From Promethearchaeota archaeon (lineage in GTDB: Archaea; Asgardarchaeota; Hermodarchaeia; Hermodarchaeales; Hermodarchaeaceae), in NCBI GenBank assembly GCA_048938295.1, contig JBHLMI010000024.1, positions 11,725 to 43,724 on the forward strand: a stretch of DNA of 32,000 nucleotides, given 5' to 3'. The notes beneath the pieces are model-generated. The model saw only the letters and a list, made by a program, of their open reading frames with translations. It was not told the origin of the DNA and ran no database searches. Shown in pieces: positions 1,935 to 23,921 of the stretch. The stretch's first letter is position 1, and each line of letters starts with the position of its first letter. The position numbers and the translations under genes are program-made.

Positions 1935-2123
1935 CTGTTGACACCCCAAGTGAGTAATAAGTTCAGGTATAATGTAGCTTCAGATCATCAGCTCTAACTG
2001 CAAGCACGACCTGAGAGGCATCTAATAAACGTATTGATTTTTCTGGAGACGGCTCTTTATGGAAGGTTATTATCTTAAATGGAAGCTGTATACTAACTTC
2101 GGACAGAGAGCAACCTTCTCTGG

Positions 2124-3491
2124 ATGTGTGATTGGATGCTATCCTATCCACGACGAATTTCGTATGGTATCGGACGGACTGGTTCGTCTCTGTTGTTGAC
2201 CTTTGTGGATTTTGCTGGATTGAACATCTATTATTCGTTCTTTCTACTCAATCCCCTGTATGCGGGAATTGCCAGTGCCTTTGGTTTCATTGTTATTGGG
2301 TTATCTCATTGGTATCTGGGATTCCGGAGCGATAGAACAGAAAGCCGTTTTGGACGGCGACGGCCGTACATTATCGTTGGTGCCCCAGCGCTAGCCATCA
2401 CAGGATTTCTCATATTCTTTCCGCATTGGATTATTCCCTCCTCACCAGATCCAATTAATGATCCGACCTGGCAAATCATGACCTTCGGATATTATTTACT
2501 CACGTTAGCCCTGTTCAAGTTTTTCTATGCATTCCTTCTCACTGCTTATCAAGCGTGGTTACCTGAAATTGCTGATCCCGATGAGCGACCAAATGTTGGG
2601 GCCATTCAAAACACGGCAAACTGGATTGGAACAGGGATCGGGATAGTAATAGGGTTTATTTCCGGGATTCTTTTCACTCCCATTAGTGGCATCCCGACAA
2701 CCATCGGGTTCATAGTTCTGATGGCAATATCATTATTATGTTTCTTGTTGTTTCTACCTGCTATCTTATTTGTTCGGTCTCGACCAGGTATTCAACCAAT
2801 TAACCGGTCAATGGTGGAGGAAACCAAGACAGCACTTAAGAACCCCAACTATGTGAAATGGATTTTGGTAGTTGGTTTCTGGTCCCTCACTTTGTCAACA
2901 ATCACATCAATCATTGTGCCAATGCTACAAAACGGATTAATGCTAGAATTTACTCAACTAATTCTCGCTGCAGGTGTGTTTCTCATTGCACTCATGATAA
3001 TACCCTTCCTTCTCGCTAGACTAGTGAAGAGATATGGGAAGAAACGTATTCTTATGGCAGCACTACTAATTTTAGCCCTGATATTACCACTGACCGCCAT
3101 TCTTGGACTGCCAATCCTTGGTCCTGTCACTCTCCAAGTCATCGCGTTTGGTATACCCCTAGGAAGCTGCGTTGCTGCCCTCTACCTCATGCGATATGTT
3201 GTAATCGCTGACATCGCACACAAGGATGAACTTGACAGTGGCCAGGCCCGAGCTGGCATGTACGAAGGATTTCAAGGGGTTCCCTTGAATGCCTTCCAAG
3301 CGTTTGGAGCAACGTTCCTTGGATGGTTTCTTCTAGTTCTGCAAGTAAGCCCAGGACCACCACCTATAAACTTCGGTTTCTTCTGGTGGGGACCAGTATT
3401 TGCCATCTTCCTTGTAATCGCAGCCGTGATTCTCCACTACACCAACATAGACCCCGATTTCTCGAACCTCGAGAAACCACTTGACCAATAA
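2124..3491 (+). CDS. MFS transporter, GPH/MFS_2 (glycoside-pentoside-hexuronide:cation symporter)-like
   Basis: About 12 hydrophobic segments; SDRTESRFGRRRPY loop motif; second-half LVKRYGKKR; IADIAHKDELDSGQARAGMYEG. Exact start uncertain (an alternative ATG lies a few codons later). Confidence 0.88.
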   Translation: MCDWMLSYPRRISYGIGRTGSSLLLTFVDFAGLNIYYSFFLLNPLYAGIASAFGFIVIGLSHWYLGFRSDRTESRFGRRRPYIIVGAPALAITGFLIFFPHWIIPSSPDPINDPTWQIMTFGYYLLTLALFKFFYAFLLTAYQAWLPEIADPDERPNVGAIQNTANWIGTGIGIVIGFISGILFTPISGIPTTIGFIVLMAISLLCFLLFLPAILFVRSRPGIQPINRSMVEETKTALKNPNYVKWILVVGFWSLTLSTITSIIVPMLQNGLMLEFTQLILAAGVFLIALMIIPFLLARLVKRYGKKRILMAALLILALILPLTAILGLPILGPVTLQVIAFGIPLGSCVAALYLMRYVVIADIAHKDELDSGQARAGMYEGFQGVPLNAFQAFGATFLGWFLLVLQVSPGPPPINFGFFWWGPVFAIFLVIAAVILHYTNIDPDFSNLEKPLDQ

Positions 3492-3511: not shown

Positions 3512-4189
3512 CTATGCCACCTCCTTTATTTTTTCCACGAGCTTGAGCAGGTTATAGGAATTTGTTTCTTGGATGGTTTTATCAAGCGTAGCAAGCTTCA
3601 TGAAAACCTCAATTGCCCCATCATCATCAATATCTAGCGCCGTCCCCATAGCATAGTAGATAATCGGATTCAACTCGTGCGCTTCTAATTCGCGTACATG
3701 CTTCTGAAGACTCCGCTCACCAAAACAAAATTGAAACCTGCGAGCATTGGCAAAGAAGAGCACGTTGGTTCCTATGCCTTTCCAATCTTTCGCAATAATC
3801 GGGCGATTCGAACGCAGACCAGACCAAATTAGATCATCAAGGACCTTTCCCGTTAGTAGCGGTAAATCTCCTAATATTATGATAGTATAGCTAGAACCTT
3901 GCTGGGTACAATGGTGAAGACACTCCATTAGTTCATCGTTCAGACCTTCGTTGGTGCTCTTATAGATTCTAAAGTTTGGGTTTGCAACCGTGGGAAGGAG
4001 GGTATCGTTATATGTTACGATAATTGACTTACTGATGAGGTGGGATGTATTGGTGGCATTCAGAACATCGAGTAGCATAGATTTAACAAGTTCCTGTCGC
4101 TGCCTGGCATCTAAGATGCTAGCTAGTCTTTGCTTAGTAGAAGGAAGAAATCGGATAGGAATTATGGCAACAATTTCTGATTCAGACAT
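3512..4189 (-). CDS. cofC: 2-phospho-L-lactate/PEP guanylyltransferase (coenzyme F420 biosynthesis)
   Basis: AIIPIR...KQRLASILD...R.ELVKSMLLDVL N-terminus, GLND, IILGDLPLL, GIGTNVL, FGERSLQKH and LDIDD motifs typical of CofC/FbiD. Confidence 0.88.
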   Translation of the reverse strand: MSESEIVAIIPIRFLPSTKQRLASILDARQRQELVKSMLLDVLNATNTSHLISKSIIVTYNDTLLPTVANPNFRIYKSTNEGLNDELMECLHHCTQQGSSYTIIILGDLPLLTGKVLDDLIWSGLRSNRPIIAKDWKGIGTNVLFFANARRFQFCFGERSLQKHVRELEAHELNPIIYYAMGTALDIDDDGAIEVFMKLATLDKTIQETNSYNLLKLVEKIKEVA

Positions 4190-4213: not shown

Positions 4214-4909
4214 TCATATGTAATATTCATAGGGATCGTATTCACTTCCGGGTTTAGACCGATTTCTCCAGATCCTAATGTGACGGTAGCTGTAGGCAAA
4301 GAGGAAACCCCCAAGAAATCCAAACACATGGGCTCCATGAGCGATACCTGTACTGAAAGCAAAGAACATCTGAATAACTTCAAGGATGAAGTAGATGATG
4401 ATTATATTCCAGGCACCAGCAGTCCGACCAGCATCCCCAGAGATGCCAATAGGACGGCGCGGAAGCAGATAAGCGTAGGCAGCCATTATTCCAAAGATTG
4501 CCCCAGAAGCGCCTATGGTCGGAATCGAAACGCCTCCTACACTAACAGCAGTACTAATGGTATACATTATTAGAGTGTGACCTAATCCTCCAATAATTCC
4601 TGAGAAGAGATAGAGCGTTAAGTAAGTGAATGGGTGCATTTCATGTTCTACGACTTGGCCGAAGATGAAAAGGAAGTACATATTGATTAACAGATGAAAG
4701 AAATCAGCGTGGAGGAATTGGCTTGTGATGAGTGTGTATAGTTTTTGACCCGCAACGATGTCTGAAGGAATCAGGGCAAATGAATACGTGATGGCGGGGT
4801 AGCCGAGTTGGACCTCGATACTAAATACGAGGATGAAGATGACGGTATTTAGGAGGATAAGGGTATATGTCATATAGGACCTTAGGGGTCTCGGGTAGTC
4901 ATAGGTCAC
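4214..4909 (-). CDS. Rhomboid family intramembrane serine protease
   Basis: LITSQFLHADFFHLLINM, catalytic GASG serine motif, and AHGAHVFGFLGG with the catalytic His; about 6 TM segments. Confidence 0.93.
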   Translation of the reverse strand: MTYDYPRPLRSYMTYTLILLNTVIFILVFSIEVQLGYPAITYSFALIPSDIVAGQKLYTLITSQFLHADFFHLLINMYFLFIFGQVVEHEMHPFTYLTLYLFSGIIGGLGHTLIMYTISTAVSVGGVSIPTIGASGAIFGIMAAYAYLLPRRPIGISGDAGRTAGAWNIIIIYFILEVIQMFFAFSTGIAHGAHVFGFLGGFLFAYSYRHIRIWRNRSKPGSEYDPYEYYI

Positions 4910-5041: not shown

Positions 5042-5419
5042 ATGGCGCTTCGTGATTTCCTCTATCCCTATCTTGAAGTAATTCTCGTTCTTGCGCGAGC
5101 CTTAGATGTGGATGAAGCCCAGGCCGCGTTTGGTAGTCTCTCAGAGGAGTATCAGCAAGTGGCTGCCCGGATACGAATTGCACCACATGACGCGCAACGA
5201 TTGAACCTCAAGGAGGAAGATCACGTTTTGGTAAACTCTGATATAGGTAGTGTGGTAGTGGTTGCGGAGATCCAATCTGATCAACCTGCGGGTATGGTCG
5301 TAATGCATCCTGGACCCTGGGCATTTGCTCTCATCGAAGCAATGATTCCAAGTCAGGGCACGGAGGTCACCATTAAACCAAGCACAGAACCTGTTACACC
5401 CCTTGACCAATTACTCTAA
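5042..5419 (+). CDS. fwdD: FwdD-like molybdopterin-dinucleotide-binding domain protein (divergent)
   Basis: IAPHDAQRLNLKEEDHVLVNSDIGSVVV...PAGMVVMHPGPWAFALI resembles FwdD (MNPED..LG..EGD.V.V.S..G.VVV...P.G.I.IP.GPWAN). The usual N-terminal TGRT is replaced by LARA. Confidence 0.72.
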   Translation: MALRDFLYPYLEVILVLARALDVDEAQAAFGSLSEEYQQVAARIRIAPHDAQRLNLKEEDHVLVNSDIGSVVVVAEIQSDQPAGMVVMHPGPWAFALIEAMIPSQGTEVTIKPSTEPVTPLDQLL

Positions 5420-6864
5420 CGGGACCGATTTTTTGAAGTGGCTTTTTCACTAGCTTTTAAACTGGGTTTCATCTTTTTTTGCGCTTCGTCTTTAACGGCT
5501 GCACACAAAGGTTCGACGCGACCTCGCTCGAAAAGCAAACGTAGCCGCCAATTTCTCCGAATGATCTCTTGGAGTTTCTGAATTCGTGCCTGGGCTTGTG
5601 TTCGACTGATCTTGTCTTCAGACCACTTCTCTGATTTAGTTTGCACCGAAGTTCCGTGTTCTGTGGGAGCGATTTTTATAACACGTTCGTAGATATCATT
5701 TCGTGGGGTGCTTAGGCCTATAAGGTGGTCATAGAACCTGTGAGCTCGTGCTCGTTCCCAATCCCGAGCTTGTTCAATTTGTGATAACGTATAGCTGTCA
5801 CGGCTAACCTTGAGGACCTCTTCGGGGCAGGCGTTTTCACACGCTCCACAGAATACGCAGATAGCTTTGTTGATGGCAATTTTATCTTTATCGCCGGTCG
5901 GATAGATGGCTTTGGTGGGGCAGATGTTAAAACAATTCACGCATCCTGTTGGATCACATTTCTCTAGATTATGAATCTCGATATCACCAGTAAGTGGTAA
6001 GGAGACCTCCAAGGCGTCAAACGGACATTTCTCAGCGCATAGTGTGCAGTCGACGCAGAGCCCGTCATCGATGGTCATAGTTCCTTCGACTTCTGGATCC
6101 CTAATGATCCGGGGCGGTGCGCTTTCACAGGTAACCTTCACGGCATCAGAAGGACAAATCTTCTCGCATAGCCCACAATAATCGCATTGTGTTGTATCGA
6201 CTCGGATACCAACAGCAGGTGCGAAATCTGGAGGTTTTGGTTTTTCCTCCGACCAGTAAATAGTGATGCATTCTGGGCATAGCAATTCACACAATCCGCA
6301 CCATGTGCATTTGTCCTCATCGATGACAATGGTTCCTTTGGCATCTGGATTCCCCCCAGCCACTCGTCTAGCAGCTTTGGGATCCTTGTAACTCACCAGT
6401 TTGGTTTTGGGGGTAACCTTAAGGTCAACAGTGATTGCATCACGGGGACAGAGTTTGGCACATAAAACACATGGCGCACATTTCTCCTCATCGAGCTTAT
6501 GTTTCCCTTTCAGCCGTGAATATTGCCGATCAGCAGGGATATCATCAAATCGGGCCTCAATCGCATTGAATAGGCAGGCAGAATCGCATAAGCCACAGAA
6601 AGTGCATTTATCTTCATCAATCAGAATGAGAGGTGCCTCTTCAAGACGTCCTGCCGCAATTTCTTGCACCGGGCCCAAGGTGATAGCGTCCCAAGGGCAC
6701 GGTAAACAGAGACTACAGCCAACACATCGAGACAGGTCATATTTGAGGTTCTTGTTCAGCAGCGACGTCTTCCAGTTATAACGAATGTTAGTGTCATCTA
6801 AGACTTCACTGGTCACTTTGGGGCGTTCACCGACAATAATACGGTCTCGCTGCACTTTTGTCAT
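5416..6864 (-). CDS. fwdF: FwdF-like polyferredoxin, 8 x [4Fe-4S] motifs plus C-terminal helical extension
   Basis: Eight motifs counted: CVGCSLCLPCP, CTFCGLCDSAC, CAPCVLCAKLCP, CTWCGLCELLCP, CDYCGLCEKICP, CVDCTLCAEKCP, CDPTGCVNCFNICP, CVFCGACENACP. The stop codon overlaps that of the convergent fwdD-like gene. Confidence 0.82.
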   Translation of the reverse strand: MTKVQRDRIIVGERPKVTSEVLDDTNIRYNWKTSLLNKNLKYDLSRCVGCSLCLPCPWDAITLGPVQEIAAGRLEEAPLILIDEDKCTFCGLCDSACLFNAIEARFDDIPADRQYSRLKGKHKLDEEKCAPCVLCAKLCPRDAITVDLKVTPKTKLVSYKDPKAARRVAGGNPDAKGTIVIDEDKCTWCGLCELLCPECITIYWSEEKPKPPDFAPAVGIRVDTTQCDYCGLCEKICPSDAVKVTCESAPPRIIRDPEVEGTMTIDDGLCVDCTLCAEKCPFDALEVSLPLTGDIEIHNLEKCDPTGCVNCFNICPTKAIYPTGDKDKIAINKAICVFCGACENACPEEVLKVSRDSYTLSQIEQARDWERARAHRFYDHLIGLSTPRNDIYERVIKIAPTEHGTSVQTKSEKWSEDKISRTQAQARIQKLQEIIRRNWRLRLLFERGRVEPLCAAVKDEAQKKMKPSLKASEKATSKNRSR

Positions 6865-6932
6865 AGAACTGGTTCCTATAGAAACTGCTATACTAGCTTT
6901 TGGAATCTTCGCCTATAATGCTTGTTACCGTC

Positions 6933-8303
6933 CTAGGCATTATCCCGAATTCGATGTTTAATCTCTTTGCGGCTAGTAAGATAGATGCCCCCCATTACAG
7001 CAAGAACAATTAGGGCAAAAATCAAACCACTTGCAATAACTGGAATACCCAAACGATGAGGATCAACTGGAGATGGTGGTGCATCCGGAATCTGGGAAAG
7101 CCAGGTTGTTCCACTCAAAAATCCATAACTGGTGGTAGAACCGGCAAAAACCAAGTTACCACCACATTCTACTATCGATATTCCAACATCATTGCCTTCT
7201 CCTCCATACAGCTTCTGCCAAAGAATCTGACCATCATTATCAAAACGAACAACGATGATATCATGCCAGGGACTATTTTCCGTGTGAGATACCTCACCAA
7301 TCATCACATATCCACCATCACTACATGCTGTTATACAATGGGCAATATTATCAGTCTCCAAACCTAGCTGTTGAATCCATAGTACAGTGCCATCGGGAGC
7401 GGTATGAACAATATAGGAATCTAAACGACTATTGCCCATATCCTGCATCACCCCCGCTATTGTAAACTCGCCGGCACCTGTTACAATGATGCTATTTCCA
7501 CGACTATAAGCTGAATTCCCGAAAGTGCGTTCCCATTTGACTGCCCCATCAAATGCAGTATTGACGGCCCACATCCTAACCCCATTATCATCTAAACTCT
7601 CTGAAGATCCAACAAAGACTAGTCCCTGACCTGAATCTTCAATAACAGAATATAGATACTCATCTCCTAAACCTCCATATTCCCGATGCCAGTATAATGA
7701 ACCGTCCCTATCGAGCTTTATAACCAGCCCATCAACAGGATTGGTGGGTCGATAATGCCAAGCCCATCCACACACAATCAGATCACCAGACGGCAGTTCT
7801 GCAACAGCATAAGCTTCTTGGTGCTCAGTAAAGTTAAGGATTCGTTCCCAGAGGAGATAACCCAATTGATCGGTACGAAAAATAAGAACGTTTGAGAATT
7901 CATCATCTACCGCTCCAGCTACTACTAAATCACCATTATCGCATTCAATAACAGCTTGTCCCCAACCACGATGGTTAGGTGAGTAAGATCGTTCCCATTC
8001 AACTTCACCAAATAGGTCAATCTTTGCCATCCATGCATGCTCATCGCTGAGTCCAATTGCTGATTCTACGATGAAACCTGCAACGACAAACCCCCCAGTG
8101 CGACATTCGGTAATAGATCGGGGATGTCTTGCGGTCATATTGTCAAAAAATTGTACCCATTGAAAGTCAGTTTCGCGTTCCAAATTGTAGCTTAACTGAG
8201 ACTGTATAGCTGCTAATCCATTATTGGAGGTTGGAGTAAGGAATAAAGGAACATTAAACGAAACGAGGAGCAGACCAAGAAGCAGCGCGGTGACTTGTTG
8301 CAA
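6933..8303 (-). CDS. Single-pass membrane protein: signal peptide, 7-repeat beta-propeller ectodomain, C-terminal TM helix, short basic tail
   Basis: Seven repeats of the form (S/A)(I/V)xE..xGG(F/Y/L)VxxG...W.R.YGG; N-terminal hydrophobic stretch; TM IPVIASGLIFALIVLAVMGGIYL followed by TSRKEIKHRIRDNA. Confidence 0.8.
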   Translation of the reverse strand: MQQVTALLLGLLLVSFNVPLFLTPTSNNGLAAIQSQLSYNLERETDFQWVQFFDNMTARHPRSITECRTGGFVVAGFIVESAIGLSDEHAWMAKIDLFGEVEWERSYSPNHRGWGQAVIECDNGDLVVAGAVDDEFSNVLIFRTDQLGYLLWERILNFTEHQEAYAVAELPSGDLIVCGWAWHYRPTNPVDGLVIKLDRDGSLYWHREYGGLGDEYLYSVIEDSGQGLVFVGSSESLDDNGVRMWAVNTAFDGAVKWERTFGNSAYSRGNSIIVTGAGEFTIAGVMQDMGNSRLDSYIVHTAPDGTVLWIQQLGLETDNIAHCITACSDGGYVMIGEVSHTENSPWHDIIVVRFDNDGQILWQKLYGGEGNDVGISIVECGGNLVFAGSTTSYGFLSGTTWLSQIPDAPPSPVDPHRLGIPVIASGLIFALIVLAVMGGIYLTSRKEIKHRIRDNA

Positions 8304-8383
8304 CCGACCGATACCTCAGGAAAGGATTTGATGAATGTCTGTCTGCCGTTGATTAAAAATGGTTGTGTTATAAGGTTCTTTTT

Positions 8384-10081
8384 TCATCTGCCAATCTTAC
8401 CAATGGGATATTTTCGTCGGTTGAACCGGTGACCACAGCTGGGGCAATAATTTCGTTTTGCTAACCATTCAAGCATATGATTCGAATGAGCGAGAACTTT
8501 GCACTTCGGACAAAAGAGAACTGGATCATCTTTACCGATGACTTGGCCACAAAATAAGCAAAAATGTGGATGACTGGTACACTTAATACAATGAAGATTA
8601 GACCTTGGGTTCAGTTCAGCACATTTCATGCAAGGTAATTTGCCCCGTAAGATAGGTGACAACTCATCAATTAACCAAGGAGTTAAAAGTGCCCTTTTAG
8701 TTACTCGGCGTTTCGGTTCAACCCAACTTTGTCTGAGCTCTCTTCGACTACGTATTAGCATCAAGTAGGCACCAAGAAGCATGAGAATGGCAAGACCACC
8801 ACCAGTACTAATTAATCTAAAATCTGGTGGACCATATTCAGGTGTTGGAATATATTCCGGACTAGTATCGGGGACTCGTATTGCTAAAGCCATCGAGTGT
8901 GAATTATAGAAGTCCTCAATGTGTCCATCCGTCAAACCTACTATGATGAAATCTCCATTCGGGGCTTGGACTATGGATCGACCTTCATCATCGTTGTCTG
9001 TGCCATAACTCTTCATCCACTGATATTCACCTTCACTGGTTAACCGGATAAGTAACAAATTATTCGATCTATCTGAGGTGTCAAAGGTTTGTCCTGCTAT
9101 CGCATACCCTCCATCTTGGCATTTTGTAATTACATAACCACGATCAAATAATATGCCACCAAATGTTGTCTCCCAAAGGACAATACCATTCCCATGAATT
9201 AAAGCTGCAAAGCCATCGGGAATCATATTCTCGGAATTTGCAGTGCTACCAACAAATGCATACATTTCTGTTTCTGATTCGATGATATCATAACATATAT
9301 CAGGCATTGGACCGCCAAGAGTGTAGTTCCATATTTCGACTCCATTTGCATAGGTCTTTACGATCCAAGCGTCTTCCTCCCCCGCGCCAAAACTTTCAGT
9401 TGAACCTGCTAAATAGAATTCTTGGCTAGGTGTTTCGATAAGAGAATAACAGATATCAGGAGCATTTCCACCATAGGTCCTGTTCCAGAGTTGGGTGCCT
9501 TCTTCGTCAGTGCGGACGAAGAAATAATCAGAATCATCACTGCCATAGTTTCGTTGAAATCCAGCTAATGCGAATCCATCGTTCTGGCATTCAACTAATG
9601 CCATTCCTTGTTCATAAGAAGAGACTCCACCATAAGTTCGATACCACATGGTTTGCCCTTCCTCATCAGTACGAAGGAGCAGGACATCATGATTATTTGA
9701 GGTTGTGTAGCCAATTACAGCAAATCCACCTGGTTGACATTCAACCACTTCCATTCCGCCTTGCGAGATATATTCCTGGAAAAATCTCCGCCATACAACT
9801 TCTCCATTCTCTCCTAACCGCATTAAAAAGATAGACCCGCGACCCTGAAAAATACCGGTTCCCGTGGCTAGATAGCCACCATCGCTACAGGCAATAACTG
9901 AATGGAAGATGTTTTGTCCTATTCCTAAATCCTCAGTCACGGTCCAGATTTGGTCTGAACTCACGAGACTGCTACTTGGGTTATTGAGTGGGGCTGGTTG
10001 TATCGCACTGGATGAAACGAGGTTTAATGCAAGGCTTGATAAAAGCAAACAAATGGTGAGTAGATATCTCAACCTCCGCAA
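8384..10081 (-). CDS. Receptor-like protein: signal peptide, 7-repeat beta-propeller, TM helix, cytoplasmic Zn ribbon and RING-finger-like domain (putative E3 ligase)
   Basis: Seven propeller repeats; TM LISTGGGLAILMLLGAYLMLI (aa 423-443) followed by RSRR; CMKC-x10-CIKC; then CLFC-x12-CPKC-x4-H-x2-H-MLEWL-x5-CPSC (aa 508-549). Confidence 0.8.
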   Translation of the reverse strand: MRRLRYLLTICLLLSSLALNLVSSSAIQPAPLNNPSSSLVSSDQIWTVTEDLGIGQNIFHSVIACSDGGYLATGTGIFQGRGSIFLMRLGENGEVVWRRFFQEYISQGGMEVVECQPGGFAVIGYTTSNNHDVLLLRTDEEGQTMWYRTYGGVSSYEQGMALVECQNDGFALAGFQRNYGSDDSDYFFVRTDEEGTQLWNRTYGGNAPDICYSLIETPSQEFYLAGSTESFGAGEEDAWIVKTYANGVEIWNYTLGGPMPDICYDIIESETEMYAFVGSTANSENMIPDGFAALIHGNGIVLWETTFGGILFDRGYVITKCQDGGYAIAGQTFDTSDRSNNLLLIRLTSEGEYQWMKSYGTDNDDEGRSIVQAPNGDFIIVGLTDGHIEDFYNSHSMALAIRVPDTSPEYIPTPEYGPPDFRLISTGGGLAILMLLGAYLMLIRSRRELRQSWVEPKRRVTKRALLTPWLIDELSPILRGKLPCMKCAELNPRSNLHCIKCTSHPHFCLFCGQVIGKDDPVLFCPKCKVLAHSNHMLEWLAKRNYCPSCGHRFNRRKYPIGKIGR

Positions 10082-10156
10082 TCATTCCAACTCTCGAGTT
10101 TCCTATATAAGAGAGCTAGGAGTGATTTAAAACTGTAATGATACTGGAATCGGATT

Positions 10157-12601
10157 CTACCGGGATTTTGTCATCACAGTTAACTCTGAACCAAGGGGGC
10201 CAATGTCTGCAATGGATTTGACAAAATCAGTAACCAGTTCAGCAAGCCTGCCACCTTCGGATGAAGCTGTACTAGCAAATAGGATTCGATCACTGTTGAT
10301 CCCCATTTCTTTCAGCAAAGGAAGCAGTTTTTCAACTCGTTCTTTGGCTTTAGCTGTACCTGTGCGGTAATGACAATCGGTTTCATGGCAACCGAGGATT
10401 ACTACTCCATCTGCTCCTTGACTGAAGCTCTCTAAGACTAGCAGAGGATCTAGGCGGCTTGTACATGGTACTCGAAGTGGTATCATTTGCGGGGGATACC
10501 GGATACGGTTTACACCAGCACTATCAGCGGCAGCATACGCACACCAGTTGCAAAGAAAGCCGATAATAACGGGGCGTAGTGAATTGCTTTGACACGCAAC
10601 ATCAACCGCGGAGAGAAGTTGTTGCCGCGTAAATCCTGGTAAATCCAAGGCACCCGTGGGACAAGCAGCGACACATGCTCCGCAGCCCGTACAAGCAAGT
10701 TCATGAATTTGGGGAGTTTCGGAACCTTCAAAGGAGATGGCATTGGCGTCGCACGTCTTTTCACAAAGTCGGCAGCTTTCACACAAGGCTTCGTCTACGA
10801 CCGGAGCATATACTTCCAATTTGATTTTTCGTGGATTCAAAAAGGCAGAAACCTGAGCCGCAGCCAGTCCCGCGTGCGCAACAGTATCAGCGATATCCTT
10901 AGGACCTTGTGATGTACCGGCTAAATAGATACCTGAAGAATAGGTTCCTGTGGGATTAAGCTTAGGATGTTTTTCTAAAAAGAAGTTATTCTCGTCGAGG
11001 GGGATGTTTAGCAACGTCGCTAGCTTCATATTGGATGGTGCTGGATCGACACCGACACTCAATACGACAAGATCAGCTGGAAATTCGATGGGTTCACAGA
11101 GTTCAGTATCTTCTGCGCGAATAAGGAGCTTGTTGGTTTGTGGGTCTTGTTCGATTTCTGCAACTCGACCACGAATGAAGGTGACCCCATGTTCTCGTGC
11201 GGCTCGTTCATACAGCTCCTCGAATCCTTTTCCGAAGGTTCGCATGTCCGTATAGAAGATGAACACTTCAGTATCAGGTTGTGACAAGCGGAGTTGAACT
11301 GCTTCCTTAACTGCATAAGTGCAGCAGATTCGACTACAATAGGGGCGGTTAATGCGAATATCTCGGCTACCGACACACTGAACAAATGCTACGCGTTTGG
11401 GTGGATCCCCTGTCGATGGCCGGACTATAACGCCGTTGGAGGGTCCAACAGGGTTCAGTAACCTTTCGAGTTCAGGTGCTGTAATGACATCGGGGTATTC
11501 TTCATATCCGTATTCCTTGAGGTTTTGGGGATCATAAGGCGTAAATCCTGTGGCGACAATGATTGCCCCAACCTTGAATTTATAGTCACGGTCTGAATCT
11601 TCGAATCGGATGGATTCTTTCTCACACACACCAACACAGGATTGACAGCCTACACAGGTATTCATATCGATGTAGGGTGCAAGGGGGACTGTGTTCGGAT
11701 AGGGACGAATAATCGCTCGTCGCGTTCCAATGCCATATTCATATTCGTTGGGTTCGTCGATGGGGCATATTTCTAGACATTTGTTACACCCATTGCAGGT
11801 CTCTAAATCCACATACCGTGGGTCCTGATGCACTTTGACCTGATAGGCGCCGGGTGTGCCTTGAACCGCCGTCACCTCGCTGAGAGTGAGCACCTCAATT
11901 TTTGGATGATTGGCTACCTGGGTCATAAGGGGTCCGAGGATGCAGAGACTGCAATCGAGGCTTGGGAACAGTTTATCCCATTTAGCCATGTGTCCTCCAA
12001 GAAATCCACTCTTTTCAACGAGTACCACTTCATATCCTGCATTCGCAAGGTGTAAGGCAGATGTTATGCCGGCAGGTCCTCCACCTATAACCAGGACGCG
12101 CTTGGTAATTGGTATGCTCATCGAACTGATAGCTAGTCCATGCTGGGCCATTGTCAACGCCGCATCAATCATCAGTTGTGCTTTAGCGGTTGCTGCAGCG
12201 GGATTATCCCAATGAACCCAACTACATTGTTCCCGGATATTGGCAATGGCGAGATGTCCGCGGTTCAATCCAGCTTCTTCGATAGTCTGGCTCATGAGCT
12301 CTCCGTGTAACCGTGGAGAGCAGGCAGCAACCACGACGTGATTCACCTTTTCCTTGCGGATGGTATCACGAATTTGATTCAGTCCTTGTTCAACGCAGAA
12401 GTGGGCATCTTCAACGACGATGAGTTTGGGTTGCTTTTGATAATGTTCGACGAGAGCATCGATATCCACAATACTGTCGATATTGGATCCGCAGCGACAC
12501 AGAAATAACGCGGTCTTGTCAGAGGATCTAGGTGCAGGTTTGCGGCGAATCTTCTTGGATTGGGATTTCTGTGCTTTCGTTTTTGAGGTCTTTGCCACCA
12601 T
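10157..12601 (-). CDS. hdrA: Heterodisulfide reductase subunit A fused to a C-terminal MvhD [2Fe-2S] domain
   Basis: LFLCRCGSNI, AACSPRLH, NIREQCSWVH, FAD motif GGGPAGITSA, FPSLDCSLCIL, ELERLL, CVGSRD..PYCSRICCTYAVKEA and two ferredoxin pairs. The MvhD part shows GFLCNWCAYAAAD, RVPCTSRLDP and GCHETDCHY. Start placed at ATG 12601 behind a GGTGA SD (the track starts at GTG 12607). Confidence 0.95.
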   Translation of the reverse strand: MVAKTSKTKAQKSQSKKIRRKPAPRSSDKTALFLCRCGSNIDSIVDIDALVEHYQKQPKLIVVEDAHFCVEQGLNQIRDTIRKEKVNHVVVAACSPRLHGELMSQTIEEAGLNRGHLAIANIREQCSWVHWDNPAAATAKAQLMIDAALTMAQHGLAISSMSIPITKRVLVIGGGPAGITSALHLANAGYEVVLVEKSGFLGGHMAKWDKLFPSLDCSLCILGPLMTQVANHPKIEVLTLSEVTAVQGTPGAYQVKVHQDPRYVDLETCNGCNKCLEICPIDEPNEYEYGIGTRRAIIRPYPNTVPLAPYIDMNTCVGCQSCVGVCEKESIRFEDSDRDYKFKVGAIIVATGFTPYDPQNLKEYGYEEYPDVITAPELERLLNPVGPSNGVIVRPSTGDPPKRVAFVQCVGSRDIRINRPYCSRICCTYAVKEAVQLRLSQPDTEVFIFYTDMRTFGKGFEELYERAAREHGVTFIRGRVAEIEQDPQTNKLLIRAEDTELCEPIEFPADLVVLSVGVDPAPSNMKLATLLNIPLDENNFFLEKHPKLNPTGTYSSGIYLAGTSQGPKDIADTVAHAGLAAAQVSAFLNPRKIKLEVYAPVVDEALCESCRLCEKTCDANAISFEGSETPQIHELACTGCGACVAACPTGALDLPGFTRQQLLSAVDVACQSNSLRPVIIGFLCNWCAYAAADSAGVNRIRYPPQMIPLRVPCTSRLDPLLVLESFSQGADGVVILGCHETDCHYRTGTAKAKERVEKLLPLLKEMGINSDRILFASTASSEGGRLAELVTDFVKSIADIGPLGSELTVMTKSR

Positions 12602-12731
12602 AGTCACCGTTACGCCTTACCATTTCTTCTGGCGGCAATATACGTTTTAACAGTTTTTACGTTACAATCCCTCGATTTAATTATTAAGGCAATTGGTAAA
12701 TGAATTCGGCTGGTTGGTGCCGAAGAGATAA

Positions 12732-13244
12732 ATGGAGAAATCAGAACACAATACCTGTAGGCTGTGTCGTACCCAGATGACTGACAAAAAAGTCAACCCA
12801 ATGCAATTGTACAAACTACTTCCGCAAACCAATTGCAAAAAATGTGGGATGACATGCATGGCTTTTGCCACACGATTAGCACTCCGTGATGTCGAACTCA
12901 AAGAATGCACACCCCTCTTCGAAGAGGACCAGTATAAAGACCAACTCGCCAAACTTACAAACCTCATCACCCCTCTCCTCGACACCGAAGAAACGGGTAT
13001 TAAACTTGATGAAACCAAATGCACAGGGTGTGGAAATTGCGTTGTCGTTTGTCCTGTAGATGCAACAGTGGAGCCCGAAACAGCTTCTGGAAAAGCAGCT
13101 CGAACTACAGAAACCGTCTTCCGGGTTGAAGATGGGATTGTCAAAATCATAAATCTAGAGAAATGTCGTCGGTTTCCTCCTGACCGGATGAACTGCCGGG
13201 TCTGTGAACAGGGGTGTTACGTCAAAGCCATAGAAATATGGTGA
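12732..13244 (+). CDS. fwdG: FwdG-like 2x[4Fe-4S] ferredoxin fused to an N-terminal CdhE/RnfB-type Fe-S domain
   Basis: LYKLLPQTNCKKCGMTCMAFATRL...ECTPL N-domain; CTGCGNCVVVCPVDA..PET.SGK...VFRVEDGIVKIINLEKC...CRVCEQGC resembles FwdG. The true start may be ATG 12777. Confidence 0.72.
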   Translation: MEKSEHNTCRLCRTQMTDKKVNPMQLYKLLPQTNCKKCGMTCMAFATRLALRDVELKECTPLFEEDQYKDQLAKLTNLITPLLDTEETGIKLDETKCTGCGNCVVVCPVDATVEPETASGKAARTTETVFRVEDGIVKIINLEKCRRFPPDRMNCRVCEQGCYVKAIEIW

Positions 13245-13278
13245 TGCCGCTCTTCATTGTAATAAGAAGGGAAAAACC

Positions 13279-14562
13279 GTGCAGGATACCGTGTGCTGTG
13301 GTTGTTCTGTGGTCTGTGATGACGTCGCGGTAGCGGTGAAGAAAGCAAGTCTGCAATCCCTTGGGTTATGTCGGTTAGGCCATGAGTACTGTAATTCTGT
13401 TTTTAAGAAAAGCCGACTCGCTACATCTCTGCACAAAAATGAGAAAGGAAAACAGCTACCAATACCAATCAAAGATGCCATTCAACACGCGACCAGCCTC
13501 CTTAGAGATAGTGCAAAACCACTGTTTCTGGGCTGGTCCAACAGCACACAAGAAGCAATCCAAACTGGTTTGCAACTAGCCCAAAACCAAAATGGGGTCT
13601 TCGATAGTACCGCGAGTTTTGAATATGGACAAATGCTTGGAGCCAAACTTAAGGGTGGTGAATCAGACCAGGTAAGTCTAGATGATGTTCGCGACTTTGC
13701 AGATCATATCGTCTATTGGGGCGTCAATCCAGCAGAAAGCCACCACCGTCACGCTAGCCGCTTCACCGTCTTTCCCAAAGGTAAGAACATCCCTGAAGGA
13801 CGAGAAAGTCGCATAGTATCCGTCCTCGATGTTCGTAAAACGGAATCAATGGGGTTAGCGAACCATCAGCTTATTCTTTCTCCAATTACAGGAGATGTGG
13901 AATTCCTCCAGACATTAATCGCAGAACTGAAAGGAACAAAGCAACCGTTAGCGGAGAAAGTCGGGGGTGTACCCACAATTGAGTTCCTCAGTTTCGCGAA
14001 GCAGCTCCGCGAAGCCGAGACCATCGCGTTATTTTATGGAAACGGGCTGATACACTCCACTCATTCATCCCAAAGCTTACTCCTTCTGAAGCAACTTGAA
14101 AAAACCCTGAACCGCGGGAAACGCCATTGTTGGACTCTCCCAATGGTTGCCTATTGTAATACTATTGGTTCAGTGAAGGTAAGCCTTGACAGTTCTAACC
14201 TGCCTTTTTCCATTGACTTCAGTTCAAATCCCCCACAGTCCGTTGCGTCAATCTCTAAGAGCTTAACAAAGGGCGAGTTCGATAGCGTAATGGTTACTAA
14301 CTGGGATGCGTTAAGTCTGCTTCCTAAACCAATGGCGCAAGCCATCTCAACACTCCCGTTGATCTCCTTTTCCACCCATCCGACACTAACTACGAAAAAA
14401 TCCACCATTGTCTTTCCCACAGCCTTGACTGGGGCAGAGACCCAAGGAACTACCTACCGAATGGATGGTGCAGCTGTTCTCTTAAAGCCCTTCAAAGAAC
14501 CTCCAAAAGGAGTGCTCACCGAAGAGGAACTCCTTAAGCAACTTCTTACGGCACTACGATGA
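13279..14562 (+). CDS. fwdB: FwdB-like formylmethanofuran dehydrogenase subunit B homologue with substituted active-site residues
   Basis: VCCGCSVVCDD...GLCRLG Fe-S motif; LGWSNSTQEA; ADHIVYWGVNPAESHHRHASRF; GRESRIVSVLDVRKTES; GAETQGTTYRMDG. STASFEYG replaces NTASVCHG, and PMVAYCN replaces PMRGHYN. Confidence 0.88.
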   Translation: MQDTVCCGCSVVCDDVAVAVKKASLQSLGLCRLGHEYCNSVFKKSRLATSLHKNEKGKQLPIPIKDAIQHATSLLRDSAKPLFLGWSNSTQEAIQTGLQLAQNQNGVFDSTASFEYGQMLGAKLKGGESDQVSLDDVRDFADHIVYWGVNPAESHHRHASRFTVFPKGKNIPEGRESRIVSVLDVRKTESMGLANHQLILSPITGDVEFLQTLIAELKGTKQPLAEKVGGVPTIEFLSFAKQLREAETIALFYGNGLIHSTHSSQSLLLLKQLEKTLNRGKRHCWTLPMVAYCNTIGSVKVSLDSSNLPFSIDFSSNPPQSVASISKSLTKGEFDSVMVTNWDALSLLPKPMAQAISTLPLISFSTHPTLTTKKSTIVFPTALTGAETQGTTYRMDGAAVLLKPFKEPPKGVLTEEELLKQLLTALR

Positions 14563-14765: not shown

Positions 14766-15512
14766 TCACGGATTTCTGAAGATGTATATTCCCCAGCTGA
14801 TAGTATCTCTACCCCATTTTAGGTAGATATCTTTTGCAGTCTTTGTTTTCCTGAGAAGCTCCTGATTATCAGAATCATCCGTATGCGACTGAATATAATC
14901 GTCAACAGCCCACCACTGTAGAGTTTCATAGTGGTCCCAATCATCGCTGTTAGACACAAGTGTATGGAGGCAAGTGAGTCCCATTTCTTCACCTTGATAC
15001 ACATTATCTTCATGCGGTCGAAAAGAATTACGAGTCATTTTGGTCGCCTCAAGATATTCGGTATCAGGCTGCTTCAACCAAAAAGGTTCACCAACAATCA
15101 CAAGACCTCCAGATTTTGTCATCTGCTTGAGTGCTTTCAATGTTCCAGCATAATCATCAAAGACCCAGCTTGCTCCCAAACATATTGCAACATCAAACAG
15201 TTCTCCAGATTCAGGTCGATAATTAGCACCATCCAATTCAATGAAGGTTAAATCGGATTCAGGAACTCTCTCGAGATGTTTCTTCTTACAATCATTGATA
15301 CAAAATGGAGATAGGTCAACTCCCACCCCTGAAATTCCATATTTCTCTGCAAGTCTGACTAAGACCTCTCCCTTTCCACATGCGATATCAAGAATTCGAG
15401 TATCTTTTGGAAGGTTGAGAAGTTGACAGAAACGTTCGAATTTCTCTTCACTCATTGGATTACAGAGTACATGATGCTTGTGTGTAATGTCAAAATACTT
15501 CCATGTGTTCAT
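14766..15512 (-). CDS. Class I SAM-dependent methyltransferase
   Basis: ILDIACGKGE motif I, GVGVDLS, FDVAICLGASW, LVIVGEPFW. Confidence 0.9.
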   Translation of the reverse strand: MNTWKYFDITHKHHVLCNPMSEEKFERFCQLLNLPKDTRILDIACGKGEVLVRLAEKYGISGVGVDLSPFCINDCKKKHLERVPESDLTFIELDGANYRPESGELFDVAICLGASWVFDDYAGTLKALKQMTKSGGLVIVGEPFWLKQPDTEYLEATKMTRNSFRPHEDNVYQGEEMGLTCLHTLVSNSDDWDHYETLQWWAVDDYIQSHTDDSDNQELLRKTKTAKDIYLKWGRDTISWGIYIFRNP

Positions 15513-15641: not shown

Positions 15642-15702
15642 TGGAAATTTCATCAGAAGACTTTAAGCACTCTTTCAGGTACTACGACCAACGGTGCTCA
15701 CC

Positions 15703-16497
15703 ATGAAAGTTGCTGTTGCTGGAAAAGGCGGAACCGGAAAAACCCTTGTTGCCGGTACTCTTGCCCGGTTCCTTGGTCGCGAAAACATTCGAGTCCTCGC
15801 GGTTGACGCAGATCCGACCCCAACTCTTGCATCAACGCTTGGAATTCCAGCTGAGGTGGCAGCAAAAATCATTCCACTAACTGAAAATGATGAACTCGTT
15901 GAAGAACGAACTGGGATGGACAAGAAAACCTATGGTGCCATGTTCAAGCTCAACCCTCACGTTTCAGATCTTGCCGAGAAATTCGGAGTCCCTGGACCTG
16001 ACAATACTACCCTTCTTATCGCTGGAACAGTGACCATCGGGGGTTCAGGATGTATGTGTCCAGCTGGCGCCCTCCTCAAAGCGCTCATCCGTTATCTCAT
16101 TGTGGGCAGCGACGAAGCCTTTGTCATGGACCTTGAAGCGGGTATCGAAAACCTTGGTCGTGGAACCTCACGAGGGATGGATGCTCTGATTGTTGTCGTC
16201 GAACCAGGTAAAACCTCGATTAACACTCTCGAACGGATAAAGAAGCTCGCTAATGATATTGGCGTAGAAACAGTGTTTGCAGTAGGTAACAAGGTAATGG
16301 ATGAGACGGACCAAGAAGCCATCGAAAGTACCCTCAAAGCGATGGATGTTCCATTATTAACCGTCATTCCCTTTGACAAGGCCATTCGCCAAGCCAACCT
16401 AAAAGGTCAAGCCCCCATTGATTTTGCCCCCGATTCACCGGCAGTTCAATCCATCAAGGCTATGATTCCCAAACTTCGAAGCCGCTTAAATACTTAG
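15703..16497 (+). CDS. cooC: CooC/AcsF nickel-insertion ATPase for CODH/ACS maturation
   Basis: Deviant Walker A GKGGTGKT, VDADP, Ni-binding GSGCMCP, DLEAGIENLGRGT. Start placed at ATG 15703 behind a GGTG SD (the track uses GTG 15694). Confidence 0.92.
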   Translation: MKVAVAGKGGTGKTLVAGTLARFLGRENIRVLAVDADPTPTLASTLGIPAEVAAKIIPLTENDELVEERTGMDKKTYGAMFKLNPHVSDLAEKFGVPGPDNTTLLIAGTVTIGGSGCMCPAGALLKALIRYLIVGSDEAFVMDLEAGIENLGRGTSRGMDALIVVVEPGKTSINTLERIKKLANDIGVETVFAVGNKVMDETDQEAIESTLKAMDVPLLTVIPFDKAIRQANLKGQAPIDFAPDSPAVQSIKAMIPKLRSRLNT

Positions 16498-16518: not shown

Positions 16519-17145
16519 GTGATGGTAATTCAGCTTCAATTCCTTTTCCCATGGATATACCTAACCGTCCTGTTGCTGAGTCTTATTCTATTCTCTGTTC
16601 CCTATATTTACAGCCTCATGCCAGCCAAACTAGCGGAAAAACGTGGAGCCTCTATGTGGAAGTGGTGCAAGCTACTCCGCACTATTGGCACTGCCTTCAT
16701 GTTCATCGCGCTCCTTGTCATGGTGCTCTGGATTTGGTTTCCAATCCCAGCACTCGCCTGGCCTATCAATCCGAATCCCTGGGTGGATATCATTATCGGA
16801 GTCATTGTACTCATAATCCCAATCCCGATCTGGCGGAGAGGTCTTCGTGATGCCGGTTCCGAATGCTATGAACCCTCCAAGGACTCCCAGATGTTCGGTG
16901 GCATCTACAATCACATCCGCCACCCCCAAACCCTCGGTGAAATCAGCTGGTTCATCGCAGTACCTCTTATTGTCAATTCCCTTTTCCTGCTTGCCGTTAG
17001 CGGATTATTCCTTCTCATATACCTCCCAATCATGATCTATGTCGAAGAAGATGATCTAACTCGGCGATTTGGCGACGCCTATCGAGAATACCAAAAACGC
17101 ACAGGAGTCCTCTATCCTAAATTAAAAAAACCAAAGTCAACCTGA
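16519..17145 (+). CDS. Isoprenylcysteine carboxyl methyltransferase (ICMT/PEMT)-family membrane methyltransferase
   Basis: GGIYNHIRHPQTLGE and EEDDLTRRFGDAYREYQKRTG motifs; about 5 TM segments. Confidence 0.85.
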   Translation: MMVIQLQFLFPWIYLTVLLLSLILFSVPYIYSLMPAKLAEKRGASMWKWCKLLRTIGTAFMFIALLVMVLWIWFPIPALAWPINPNPWVDIIIGVIVLIIPIPIWRRGLRDAGSECYEPSKDSQMFGGIYNHIRHPQTLGEISWFIAVPLIVNSLFLLAVSGLFLLIYLPIMIYVEEDDLTRRFGDAYREYQKRTGVLYPKLKKPKST

Positions 17146-17146
17146 A

Positions 17147-17764
17147 TTGGGGATAATAATGTCAACAATAGCCTGGATAAACATCTTCATACTAAACCTT
17201 GTAACAATTCTCTGTTGGGTGTTCTACATCCGCAGTGTCCAACCGTATACGCGAGCGAAGAAATATGGTGAATCTGCCTGGAAAACCGCAAAACGAGACC
17301 GAATCATATCAGGCATCCTCATGAGTATCCTCACCTTCAATATAATACTGTGGCTCTGGTTTCCGATTCCAGAGTTCGCCTGGCCTGTTCATCCTAACTG
17401 GCTTGTAAGCATCATTATTGGCATTATTCTAGCCTGTATCTTCACGCCAATCTGGTTCAAGGGTATAAAGGATGCCGGGAAGGAAACCATGGAACCTTCC
17501 CCAACCACCGAATTGTATGGAGGAATTTACAACTATATCCGACACCCTCAGGTGGTCGGTGAAATGCCTTGGTTCATCATTATCCCCTTGTTCCTCAATT
17601 CGATGTTTCTTGTCATTTGGTCCACTATCATGATACTCATCGTCAGCCCCCTCATAATCTACTATGAAGAAAAGGATTTGATTGAACGGTTTGGAGATAG
17701 ATACCGGGAATATCGGCGGCGAACTGGTGCTGTATTTCCGAAGCTCATGAAACCGAAAGATTAA
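17147..17764 (+). CDS. ICMT/PEMT-family membrane methyltransferase (tandem paralog)
   Basis: GGIYNYIRHPQVVGE and EEKDLIERFGDRYREYRRRTG; shares WxWFPIPxxAWPxxPN with the preceding gene. Start uncertain (TTG 17147 or a later ATG). Confidence 0.85.
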   Translation: MGIIMSTIAWINIFILNLVTILCWVFYIRSVQPYTRAKKYGESAWKTAKRDRIISGILMSILTFNIILWLWFPIPEFAWPVHPNWLVSIIIGIILACIFTPIWFKGIKDAGKETMEPSPTTELYGGIYNYIRHPQVVGEMPWFIIIPLFLNSMFLVIWSTIMILIVSPLIIYYEEKDLIERFGDRYREYRRRTGAVFPKLMKPKD

Positions 17765-17830: not shown

Positions 17831-19024
17831 TTGAGGGCTATTGTGAACGCCACGATTTGGTGCCCTGTTCAAGGACTTATCGAAAATGGGTCAATTCTCT
17901 TTGACCGTGGGAAGATTATCGACGTGGGAAAATCCATTGCTATTCCCAGTAAAACCATAACCATTGATGCGGAAGGCCAATATGTAGTCCCAGGATTCGT
18001 GGAAGCCCATGCCCACCATGGGCTCTTCGATGGAACCATTGGCCCAATGGGACAAGATGGCAACGAAATGACAATGCCTACTACGCCGGAAATGCGTGGG
18101 AAAGACGGCTTCCACCCCTTCGAGAATTCCATTAAAGAAATTCTGAAAGGGGGCGTTACCACCGTAAACACCGGACCAGGTTCTGGCAATGTTATCTCTG
18201 GTGAAGCCTTTGTCTTCAAACCCCTTCTAGAAGCTATAGTGGAAGATATGATTGTCATGTCCCCATCTGGGCTCAAAGTTGCACTCGGTGAAAATCCCAA
18301 ACGTATCCACGGCATTGAGAATAAACGGATGCCTATGACCCGAATGGGAATCGCTGCCCTGCTCCGCAAAACGTTCACTGATGGTCAGAACTATTTAGAT
18401 GAATGGAAGGCTTTCGGAGCTAAAGCAAAAGAATCGAAAGAGAAAGGCGAAGTTATCCCCAACCCACCAAAACGAGACCTAGGGCTAGAAACCATCGCTA
18501 AGGTCCTAAAGCGCGAAATCCCTCTGCATGCCCACTGTCACCGCGCCGATGACATTGCCACCGCGATCCGTATCGCTGAAGAATTCAATCTCCGACTGGT
18601 GCTCATCCATTGCACTGAGGGTCATAAGATAACGAAATTCCTTGCGAAGAAACAATATCCTGCTGTCATTGGCCCAACCATCTTTTGGACGAGTAAACCA
18701 GAGGTCAAGGAAAAGGGATTCAAGACAGCAGTAATCCTGAATGATGCTGGCATTAAAGTTGCCTTACAAACGGATTCGTTGACGCCAATGTTCTATTTTC
18801 CCTTGCTACCCATGTACGCTATTAAGGAGGGCATGAGTCGAGAGGATGCCCTCAGATGCGTGACCCTGAATCCTGCAGAAATCCTCAGTTTACAGGATCG
18901 CATCGGCTCTTTTGAGCCAGGCAAGGATGCAGACATTATCATCTGGTCCGGGGATCCCTTCGATTTCTATAGCGAAGTAACTGAAGCGTATATCAATGGA
19001 ACTAAGGTTCCCTTGGACAAATAG
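17831..19024 (+). CDS. Metal-dependent amidohydrolase (imidazolonepropionase-like subgroup)
   Basis: PGFVEAHAH HxH motif, GGVTT, ALGENPK, HCHRADDI, IHCTEG, QTDS, NPAEILSLQDRIGSFEPGKDADIIIWSGDP; GGTGA SD before the TTG start. Confidence 0.9.
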   Translation: MRAIVNATIWCPVQGLIENGSILFDRGKIIDVGKSIAIPSKTITIDAEGQYVVPGFVEAHAHHGLFDGTIGPMGQDGNEMTMPTTPEMRGKDGFHPFENSIKEILKGGVTTVNTGPGSGNVISGEAFVFKPLLEAIVEDMIVMSPSGLKVALGENPKRIHGIENKRMPMTRMGIAALLRKTFTDGQNYLDEWKAFGAKAKESKEKGEVIPNPPKRDLGLETIAKVLKREIPLHAHCHRADDIATAIRIAEEFNLRLVLIHCTEGHKITKFLAKKQYPAVIGPTIFWTSKPEVKEKGFKTAVILNDAGIKVALQTDSLTPMFYFPLLPMYAIKEGMSREDALRCVTLNPAEILSLQDRIGSFEPGKDADIIIWSGDPFDFYSEVTEAYINGTKVPLDK

Positions 19025-23906: not shown

Positions 23907-23921
23907 TTGAGGCGATGAACT

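Follow-up and report, generated by a model that had tools for sequence, protein, structure and literature searches.

We analysed a 32,000-nt window of a Promethearchaeota archaeon genome (genome label G000, positions G000:C25:11725-43724; assembly of 2.5 Mb, 91.6% complete). In this window, genes for a FwdD-like protein, a FwdF-like polyferredoxin, an HdrA-MvhD fusion, a FwdG-like protein and a FwdB-like protein, here called the module, lie beside cooC and the cdhABCD genes of the archaeal carbon monoxide dehydrogenase/acetyl-CoA synthase (CODH/ACS). The gene map was drawn from a listing of open reading frames (ORFs) and from protein family profile scans of the window. An earlier reading of the same DNA (the original prediction) had named all of these genes, and all were found. 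It had also stated that FwdA, FwdC, HdrB and HdrC were missing from the window, which proved correct, and no gene with a CCG domain was detected there. The module genes and their CODH/ACS neighbours are listed below with their positions in the window.

5042-5419, plus strand: FwdD-like protein, molybdopterin-binding domain IV fold (PF01568, E 6e-13), 125 amino acids, no Cys
5416-6864, minus strand: FwdF-like polyferredoxin, 482 amino acids, eight [4Fe-4S] motifs and a C-terminal tail
10157-12607, minus strand: HdrA-MvhD fusion, 816 amino acids
12777-13244, plus strand: FwdG-like protein, an FeS(PF04060)-FwdG fusion of 155 amino acids with three predicted [4Fe-4S] clusters
13279-14562, plus strand: FwdB-like protein, 427 amino acids
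15694-16497, plus strand: CooC-type Ni-insertion ATPase with the P-loop GKGGTGKT and a GSGCMCPAG CxC motif
19570-25274, plus strand: cdhA, cdhB, cdhC and cdhD (archaeal CODH/ACS)

The CODH/ACS profiles all scored over their cut-offs (TIGR00314, 1131 bits; TIGR00315, 122 bits; TIGR00316, 634 bits; TIGR00381, 441 bits), and PF01656 was found in the CooC orthologues. The genes are arranged in divergent and convergent units and do not make up a single operon. Two unrelated membrane-anchored beta-propeller genes separate the fwdF-like gene from hdrA. The genes cooC and cdhABCD do lie downstream, but a methyltransferase, two ICMT-like genes and an amidohydrolase intervene between the fwdB-like gene and cdhA. 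The start of the FwdG-like ORF was moved from 12732 to 12777 because orthologues carry an in-frame TAG just upstream.

The best family match of the HdrA-MvhD fusion was to HdrA2 (NF040770, 918 bits, below the cut-off of 1100; PF02662, E 7e-44). The protein aligned to the solved HdrA 8RVU over the whole HdrA length (620 bits, E 6e-185) and also to the HdrA of 5ODC; it matched MvhD chains as well. Of the features that define the HdrA families NF040770 and NF041778, it possesses the FAD site, the N-terminal Cys cluster, the inserted and C-terminal 2x[4Fe-4S] ferredoxin domains and the CC motif cluster; it falls short of the family cut-off and has no HdrB/HdrC partners adjacent to it. Its motifs comprise GGGPAG at residues 175-180, ELER at 379-382, CCTYAVK at 428-434 and four CxxCxxCxxxC, so the claim that HdrA retains ELER and a CCxYAxK-type motif was correct. 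The orthologue of this fusion in a same-genus genome (G110:C6:18732-21179) contains one in-frame TGA, which may either specify selenocysteine or result from an error.

The FwdF-like protein scored 221 bits against NF042909 (FwdF; cut-off 375), and its best matches in the PDB were the FwdF/FmdF chains 5T5I_F and 7BKB_K. All 32 Cys of its eight motifs, which make up four fused ferredoxin domains, were invariant in 14 orthologues. Its basic C-terminal tail of approximately 110 amino acids (window 5416-5740) is absent from the solved FwdF (349 amino acids) and is conserved in the module polyferredoxins, with W369, R394 and G448 invariant. The C-terminal half of the FwdG-like protein is a 2x[4Fe-4S] ferredoxin with the FwdG-specific insert; its best PDB match, FwdG 5T5I_G (E 1.4e-11), covers this insert, and the gene lies 34 bp upstream of the fwdB-like gene. 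At the N-terminus there is an extra Fe-S domain of the RnfB/CdhE type (PF04060, E 4e-10) that was not found in 5T5I_G. The five-protein redox module descends from the Hdr-Fwd machinery of methanogens.

The FwdB-like and FwdD-like subunits

The FwdB-like protein scored 294.2 bits against TIGR03129, under the cut-off of 327.8 bits; the canonical FwdB of the same genome scored 511 bits. When aligned to the FwdB of M. wolfeii (5T5I_B), the FwdB-like protein has Glu115-Tyr116 in place of the tungsten ligand Cys118 and His119, and Val290 in place of Arg288. The codons for Glu115-Tyr116 are GAA TAT, so that neither residue is selenocysteine. The Cys residues of the N-terminal [4Fe-4S] cluster (C6, C9, C13 and C31) were invariant in 35 module FwdBs. 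The original prediction held that the electron wire was retained and the CO2-reducing site was not. The loss of the Cys/His/Arg site agrees with this, but FwdB, the CO2-reducing subunit itself, is present.

Of the 58 closest protein clusters (identity of 51% or more; Asgard in every named case), 57 had the Glu-Tyr pair, and the remaining one was a fragment without the region. In genome searches, matches to the FwdB-like protein of at least 50% identity were obtained in 18/18 genomes of the family to which the window belongs and in none of the other families searched. A second Asgard clade (Thor-type, 33-38% identity) has Gly and a variable residue (P, A, S, L, M, V or T) at the ligand position. 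A tree of family representatives, with support given as the Shimodaira-Hasegawa-like approximate likelihood ratio test (SH-aLRT), placed the module FwdBs in one clade of 30 rows (SH-aLRT 99), apart from the canonical FwdB with Cys-His and Arg. Basal module rows retain the Cys (as CH or CQ), and none of them has Arg288. The Asgard rows without the Cys group together in a single clade (SH-aLRT 96), which suggests that the ligand was probably lost once.

When each protein was compared with its G000 orthologue over one set of genome pairs, identity was 76-95% for canonical FwdB, 68-91% for HdrA-MvhD and 51-81% for the FwdB-like protein. The FwdB-like protein has diverged about 3-4 times faster than canonical FwdB. 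The FwdD-like protein scored 43.6 bits against NF042908 (FwdD; cut-off 175) and matched the FwdD chains 8RJA_D and 5T5I_D in the PDB. In the window, the Asn of its GPWAN motif is replaced by Phe. Where FwdB has its Cys, 14/15 loci also kept this Asn; nearly all loci without the Cys had Phe, Tyr, Leu or Met instead, and the Lys of the P-x-x-K segment that follows changed in parallel. The loci that show the parallel change in FwdB and FwdD are related, and the correlation therefore represents only about two independent events. Canonical FwdB has 48 columns with a conservation of 90% or more; of these, the Glu-Tyr clade retained 35, the Cys-containing module relatives 36 and the Gly-Leu clade 26. 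For the Glu-Tyr clade, this speaks against complete decay.

The FwdB-like and FwdD-like proteins have likely lost their pterin. The rates of divergence, the free variation at the ligand position and the parallel change in FwdD point to the FwdB-like protein being a pseudo-enzyme. The C-terminal domain of NuoG/Nqo3 in complex I has a Mo-bis-pyranopterin guanine dinucleotide (Mo-bisPGD) fold from which the pterin has been lost, and serves as a scaffold and Fe-S carrier. Its likeness to a FwdB-like scaffold is an analogy only, and the NuoG profile TIGR01973 matched weakly (E 2e-9).

Conservation of the module and its genomic setting

A total of 89 related loci were fetched with FwdB-like queries; many of their contigs end early, and a small number of loci duplicate a contig obtained from two sources. 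The core set of FwdG-like, FwdB-like and HdrA genes was present in 63 of the 89. Among these 63 core loci, MvhD was found in 59, the FwdF-like gene in 54 and the FwdD-like gene in 43. Within 10-kb flanks, 52 of the 63 carried CooC or CdhA, four carried FwdA and none carried FwdC. In most module loci CooC lay 1.0-1.2 kb from the FwdB-like gene. The locus titles named Hermod-, Thor-, Odin-, Baldr- and 'Prometh'-archaeota, Bathyarchaeia, Hecatellales and other Thermoproteota. The claim that the genes form a conserved unit, which a lack of synteny in relatives would have overturned, was upheld by these 63 loci from Asgard archaea and Bathyarchaeia.

The order in nine close loci was cofC, rhomboid and FwdD-like, then FwdF-like, zero to two propeller genes and HdrA-MvhD, then FwdG-like, FwdB-like and CooC, and further on cdhABCD. 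HdrC and HdrB were found inside the cluster in seven basal loci (L027, L028, L039, L055, L064, L071 and L078), one of them from Baldrarchaeota, in the order G, B, HdrA-MvhD, F, D, HdrC, HdrB, CooC, CdhA. The state of the window, without HdrBC, is accordingly derived. The description "without HdrB/C" fits the window itself but names this derived condition; basal relatives carry HdrCB. In loci L085-L100 (Methanothrix, Methanosarcina and Methanoperedens) we observed trios of FwdG, FwdB and FwdD with Cys-Gln for Cys-His and Val for Arg; no HdrA lay near them except in Methanosarcina sp. Ant1 (L097), where HdrA2-polyferredoxin genes lie 2-4 kb away.

Elsewhere in genome G000 the canonical fwd genes are intact but scattered (FwdA on C13, FwdC on C49, FwdD and FwdB on C4). 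No FwdF or FwdG gene was found beside canonical FwdA, FwdC or FwdDB, and the rest of the genome yielded no further homologue of either. A complete canonical fwd operon with its own fwdF and fwdG, which would have spoken against the original prediction, is thus lacking: the canonical genes are scattered and without F/G. HdrBC operons are located on C51 and C23, and the genome holds several other HdrA paralogues and [NiFe] hydrogenases. A search of the genome for module-type HdrBC gave only matches of at most 31% identity, to the Hdr operons on C51 and C23. The latter (G000:C23:22290-26280) is an HdrA2C2B2-type operon that encodes an HdrA-MvhD paralogue (850 amino acids) followed by HdrC, HdrB and a Cys-rich ORF of 268 amino acids; its HdrBC could be lent to the window's module. 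No McrA was found in the genome.

The remaining genes of the window were as follows.

3-1949, minus strand: ppdK
2124-3491, plus strand: major facilitator superfamily (MFS) transporter
3512-4189, minus strand: cofC
4214-4909, minus strand: rhomboid-like protein
6933-8303 and 8384-10081, minus strand: two beta-propeller membrane proteins
14766-15512, minus strand: class I S-adenosylmethionine (SAM) methyltransferase
16519-17764, plus strand: two ICMT/PEMT-like membrane methyltransferase genes in tandem
17831-19024, plus strand: amidohydrolase of the 3OOQ type, 397 amino acids
25322-26257, minus strand: TrxR-like protein

Both propeller paralogues combine a signal peptide with a beta-propeller and one transmembrane helix, and the longer one ends in a Cys/His-rich, zinc-finger-like cytoplasmic tail. 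Because the propeller genes number from 0 to 2 copies among relatives, we regard them as insertions into the module and not as members of it. Together with the methyltransferase they were the variable insertions among the nine close loci. The methyltransferase ORF had no counterpart at the same position in any related locus compared; it was considered as cooC and rejected, being a class I methyltransferase, with CooC at 15694-16497. The ORF at 12677-13150 on the minus strand was treated as spurious, since it had no family match and overlaps the fwdG-like gene. The ICMT/PEMT-like pair and the amidohydrolase between cooC and cdhA were kept in most of the Hermod-type loci that were compared, the ICMT genes being absent from L012. 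In the Thor-type module loci L023 and L026, whose gene lists were inspected, neither ICMT/PEMT-like nor amidohydrolase genes occur between cooC and cdhA. The amidohydrolase was also considered as a stand-in for FwdA and rejected: it is of the 3OOQ type (E 1e-93), its FwdA match was weak and N-terminal only, and L023 and L026 have no such gene at this place. The gene for the corrinoid Fe-S subunit, cdhE, lies alone outside the cdhABCD operon (G000:C41:64485-65897), and Thor-type loci carry cdhABCDE together. Scans of the window with ARAGORN (tRNA) and Rfam revealed no RNA genes.

Function of the module and alternative explanations

The FwdB-like protein, the FwdG-like protein and residues 1-375 of the FwdF-like protein were co-folded with an alignment supplied for each. 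The co-fold score was 0.67, compared with 0.40 for the best control; 58 of 80 solved complexes and 2 of 110 mismatched pairs came up to that mark. The runs agreed in at least 92% of contacts, with a predicted local distance difference test (pLDDT) value of at least 83 for the partners. The predicted contacts set the FwdF-like protein on the FwdB-like protein and, above all, on the PF04060 part of the FwdG-like protein. The model supports a putative assembly of the FwdF-, FwdG- and FwdB-like proteins.

We favour, with moderate confidence, the explanation that the window encodes an Hdr-polyferredoxin module whose FwdBD pair is a non-catalytic scaffold and whose partner is CODH/ACS. The HdrA-MvhD fusion would be the flavin-based bifurcating (or confurcating) core, and its low-potential arm would run via the polyferredoxin to the FwdG-like/FwdB-like end. 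The FwdB-like and FwdD-like proteins, having presumably lost the tungsto- or molybdopterin site, would form a non-catalytic scaffold that provides one [4Fe-4S] relay. CODH/ACS, encoded next door by cooC-cdhABCD, would be the working partner, to which the module may give electrons near -500 mV for the reduction of CO2 to CO or from which it may accept them during acetyl-CoA or CO oxidation. The link to CODH/ACS is supported by the gene order in 52 of 63 loci; bifurcation, and electron delivery to or docking on CdhA or CdhE, we infer.

Several observations weigh against this explanation. The Glu115-Tyr116 pair is invariant in the Hermod clade, and with 35/48 canonical columns kept the cofactor may be retained. 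The co-fold score may reflect likeness to solved Fwd complexes. The window holds the genome's only FwdF/FwdG set, which could serve canonical FwdABCD, and the lack of a dedicated HdrBC orthologue among the genes found in the genome leaves a complete bifurcating circuit unaccounted for. Proximity to CODH/ACS may represent clustering at the level of the Wood-Ljungdahl pathway and not physical coupling.

Some of these points lead directly to other explanations. If the FwdF- and FwdG-like proteins and HdrA-MvhD were the electron input of the scattered canonical FwdABCD, as in the Hdr-Fwd supercomplexes of methanogens, the FwdB-like and FwdD-like proteins would be decaying paralogues and the position next to CODH/ACS a matter of Wood-Ljungdahl clustering. 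The failure to find a second FwdF or FwdG homologue, the presence of intact FwdA, FwdC and FwdDB and the fast evolution of the FwdB-like protein all agree with this. It is weakened, however, by FwdB-like and FwdD-like proteins that are full-length and kept across deep lineages with invariant Fe-S Cys, and by FwdG-like and FwdB-like genes that are adjacent, with the 34-bp gap, in every module locus. The flanks of the core loci also favour CooC or CdhA (52/63) over FwdA (4/63) and FwdC (0/63), and the co-fold sets the FwdF-like protein against both the FwdG-like and the FwdB-like protein. Moreover, ANME-1 archaea are known to have an Fwd that lacks F/G (PMC9012536). We consider this explanation unlikely.

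Retention of a metallopterin by the FwdB-like and FwdD-like proteins, either with Glu115 taking over as ligand or without any ligand from the protein, would let them catalyse another redox reaction, one that supplies HdrA with electrons or withdraws them. The constancy of Glu-Tyr (57/58 closest clusters, the last a fragment), the continued presence of the FwdD-like gene and the number of canonical columns kept (35/48, against 36/48 in the Cys-containing relatives) speak for such an enzyme. Against it stand the sister Thor clade, with Gly and a variable residue at the same positions, the parallel loss of the FwdD GPWAN Asn and P-x-x-K Lys, and a divergence of the FwdB-like protein about 3-4 times faster than that of canonical FwdB. 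A Glu-ligated Mo/W-bisPGD enzyme is not known to exist, which also counts against this possibility, and we judge it to be improbable. A formate-oxidising Fwd-Hdr complex of the kind proposed for Methanonezhaarchaeum YNP3N, in which FwdBD oxidises formate and HdrABC bifurcates to heterodisulfide and ferredoxin, shares the subunit families FwdB, D, F, G and HdrA-MvhD with the window (PMC12700198), and basal relatives of the module carry HdrCB together with a Cys-containing FwdB. However, none of the three residues Cys, His and Arg remains at the formate/CO2 site here, the Arg is missing even from the Cys-containing module FwdBs, and HdrBC is neither in the cluster nor represented by a close module-type copy found in the genome. 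We therefore regard formate oxidation at this locus as highly improbable; the published formate-oxidising reading of Fwd-Hdr clusters does not fit the Hermod and Thor lineages, because the catalytic site of FwdB has been lost.

The favoured module with a non-catalytic scaffold can be carried one step further. In Asgard archaea and Bathyarchaeia it might form a hard-wired supercomplex in which low-potential electrons of HdrA pass through the polyferredoxin and the PF04060-FwdG adaptor to CODH/ACS (CdhA or the corrinoid subunit) with no free ferredoxin and with FwdBD as a cofactor-less scaffold. We hold this extension to be possible but rather doubtful. If true, it would be a new kind of bifurcation-coupled machine for CO2-to-CO reduction or for CO oxidation. 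The question bears on how non-methanogenic Wood-Ljungdahl archaea, including the Asgard relatives of eukaryotes, gain or shed electrons near -500 mV at CODH/ACS, for which a conserved Hdr-polyferredoxin module beside the cdh operon is a concrete, purifiable candidate. The FwdB-like protein may also be a case of a metallopterin enzyme turned pseudo-enzyme inside a redox complex.

Comparison with known systems

Literature searches on the Asgard cluster itself returned no description of it. The original prediction of a new bifurcating complex nevertheless overstated the novelty, as a Fwd-Hdr cluster (FwdBD, HdrABC, FwdF and FwdG) has already been described in Ca. Methanonezhaarchaeum YNP3N (Kohtz et al., Sci Adv 2025, PMC12700198), where a second FwdBD set occurs with HdrABC, FwdF and FwdG and a formate-oxidising complex was proposed from genome and expression data. 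Both clusters have a second FwdBD with Hdr, a FwdF polyferredoxin and FwdG, apart from canonical FwdABCD, and a predicted electronic coupling to HdrA. In contrast to the YNP3N cluster, the window lacks HdrBC, its FwdB is without the Cys, His and Arg and its FwdD without the GPWAN Asn, and it abuts cooC-cdhABCD. A 'Fwd-Hdr' cluster in the strict sense, with FwdBD, FwdF, FwdG and HdrABC co-located, does not exist in the window, from which HdrB and HdrC are absent.

The best PDB matches of the window's HdrA, FwdF, FwdG, FwdB and FwdD were chains of methanogen supercomplexes. In these Hdr-Fwd/Fmd assemblies (Fdh-Hdr-Fmd of Methanospirillum hungatei, 7BKB; Mvh-Hdr-Fmd of M. marburgensis, PMC13580544), HdrA and MvhD are wired via FmdF/FwdF and FwdG to FwdB. 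The window differs from them in that the cluster has no FwdA, no FwdC and no Mvh or Fdh donor, and in that the terminal CO2-reducing site appears to be disabled. Its MvhD is fused to HdrA, and its FwdG carries the extra PF04060 domain. The phylogeny in PMC13580544 includes Asgard and Bathyarchaeal FmdF, and the roles of FmdF groups 3-6 are called uncharacterised there.

A further parallel is provided by Methanosarcina acetivorans. Its hdrA2 encodes an HdrA-MvhD fusion and lies in one operon with a polyferredoxin gene whose expression rises on acetate, and its HdrA2B2C2 oxidises ferredoxin reduced by CODH/ACS (Yan et al., mBio 2017, PMC5296606). The window resembles this operon in combining an HdrA-MvhD fusion with a polyferredoxin and in its proposed tie to CODH/ACS electrons, a tie that is functional in M. 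acetivorans. Methanosarcina sp. Ant1 (L097) shares the divergent gene arrangement, its FwdG-FwdB-like pair lying next to HdrA2-polyferredoxin. The FwdB-like protein of Methanosarcina, however, keeps the Cys (CL or CV), its partner HdrB2C2 is known, and the window's HdrA lies under the HdrA2 cut-off (918 vs. 1100). By its gene and residue content, the window is thus a variant of a recognised cluster type, distinguished by the absence of HdrBC, by an apparently disabled FwdB/FwdD pair and by a fixed position beside the cdh operon.

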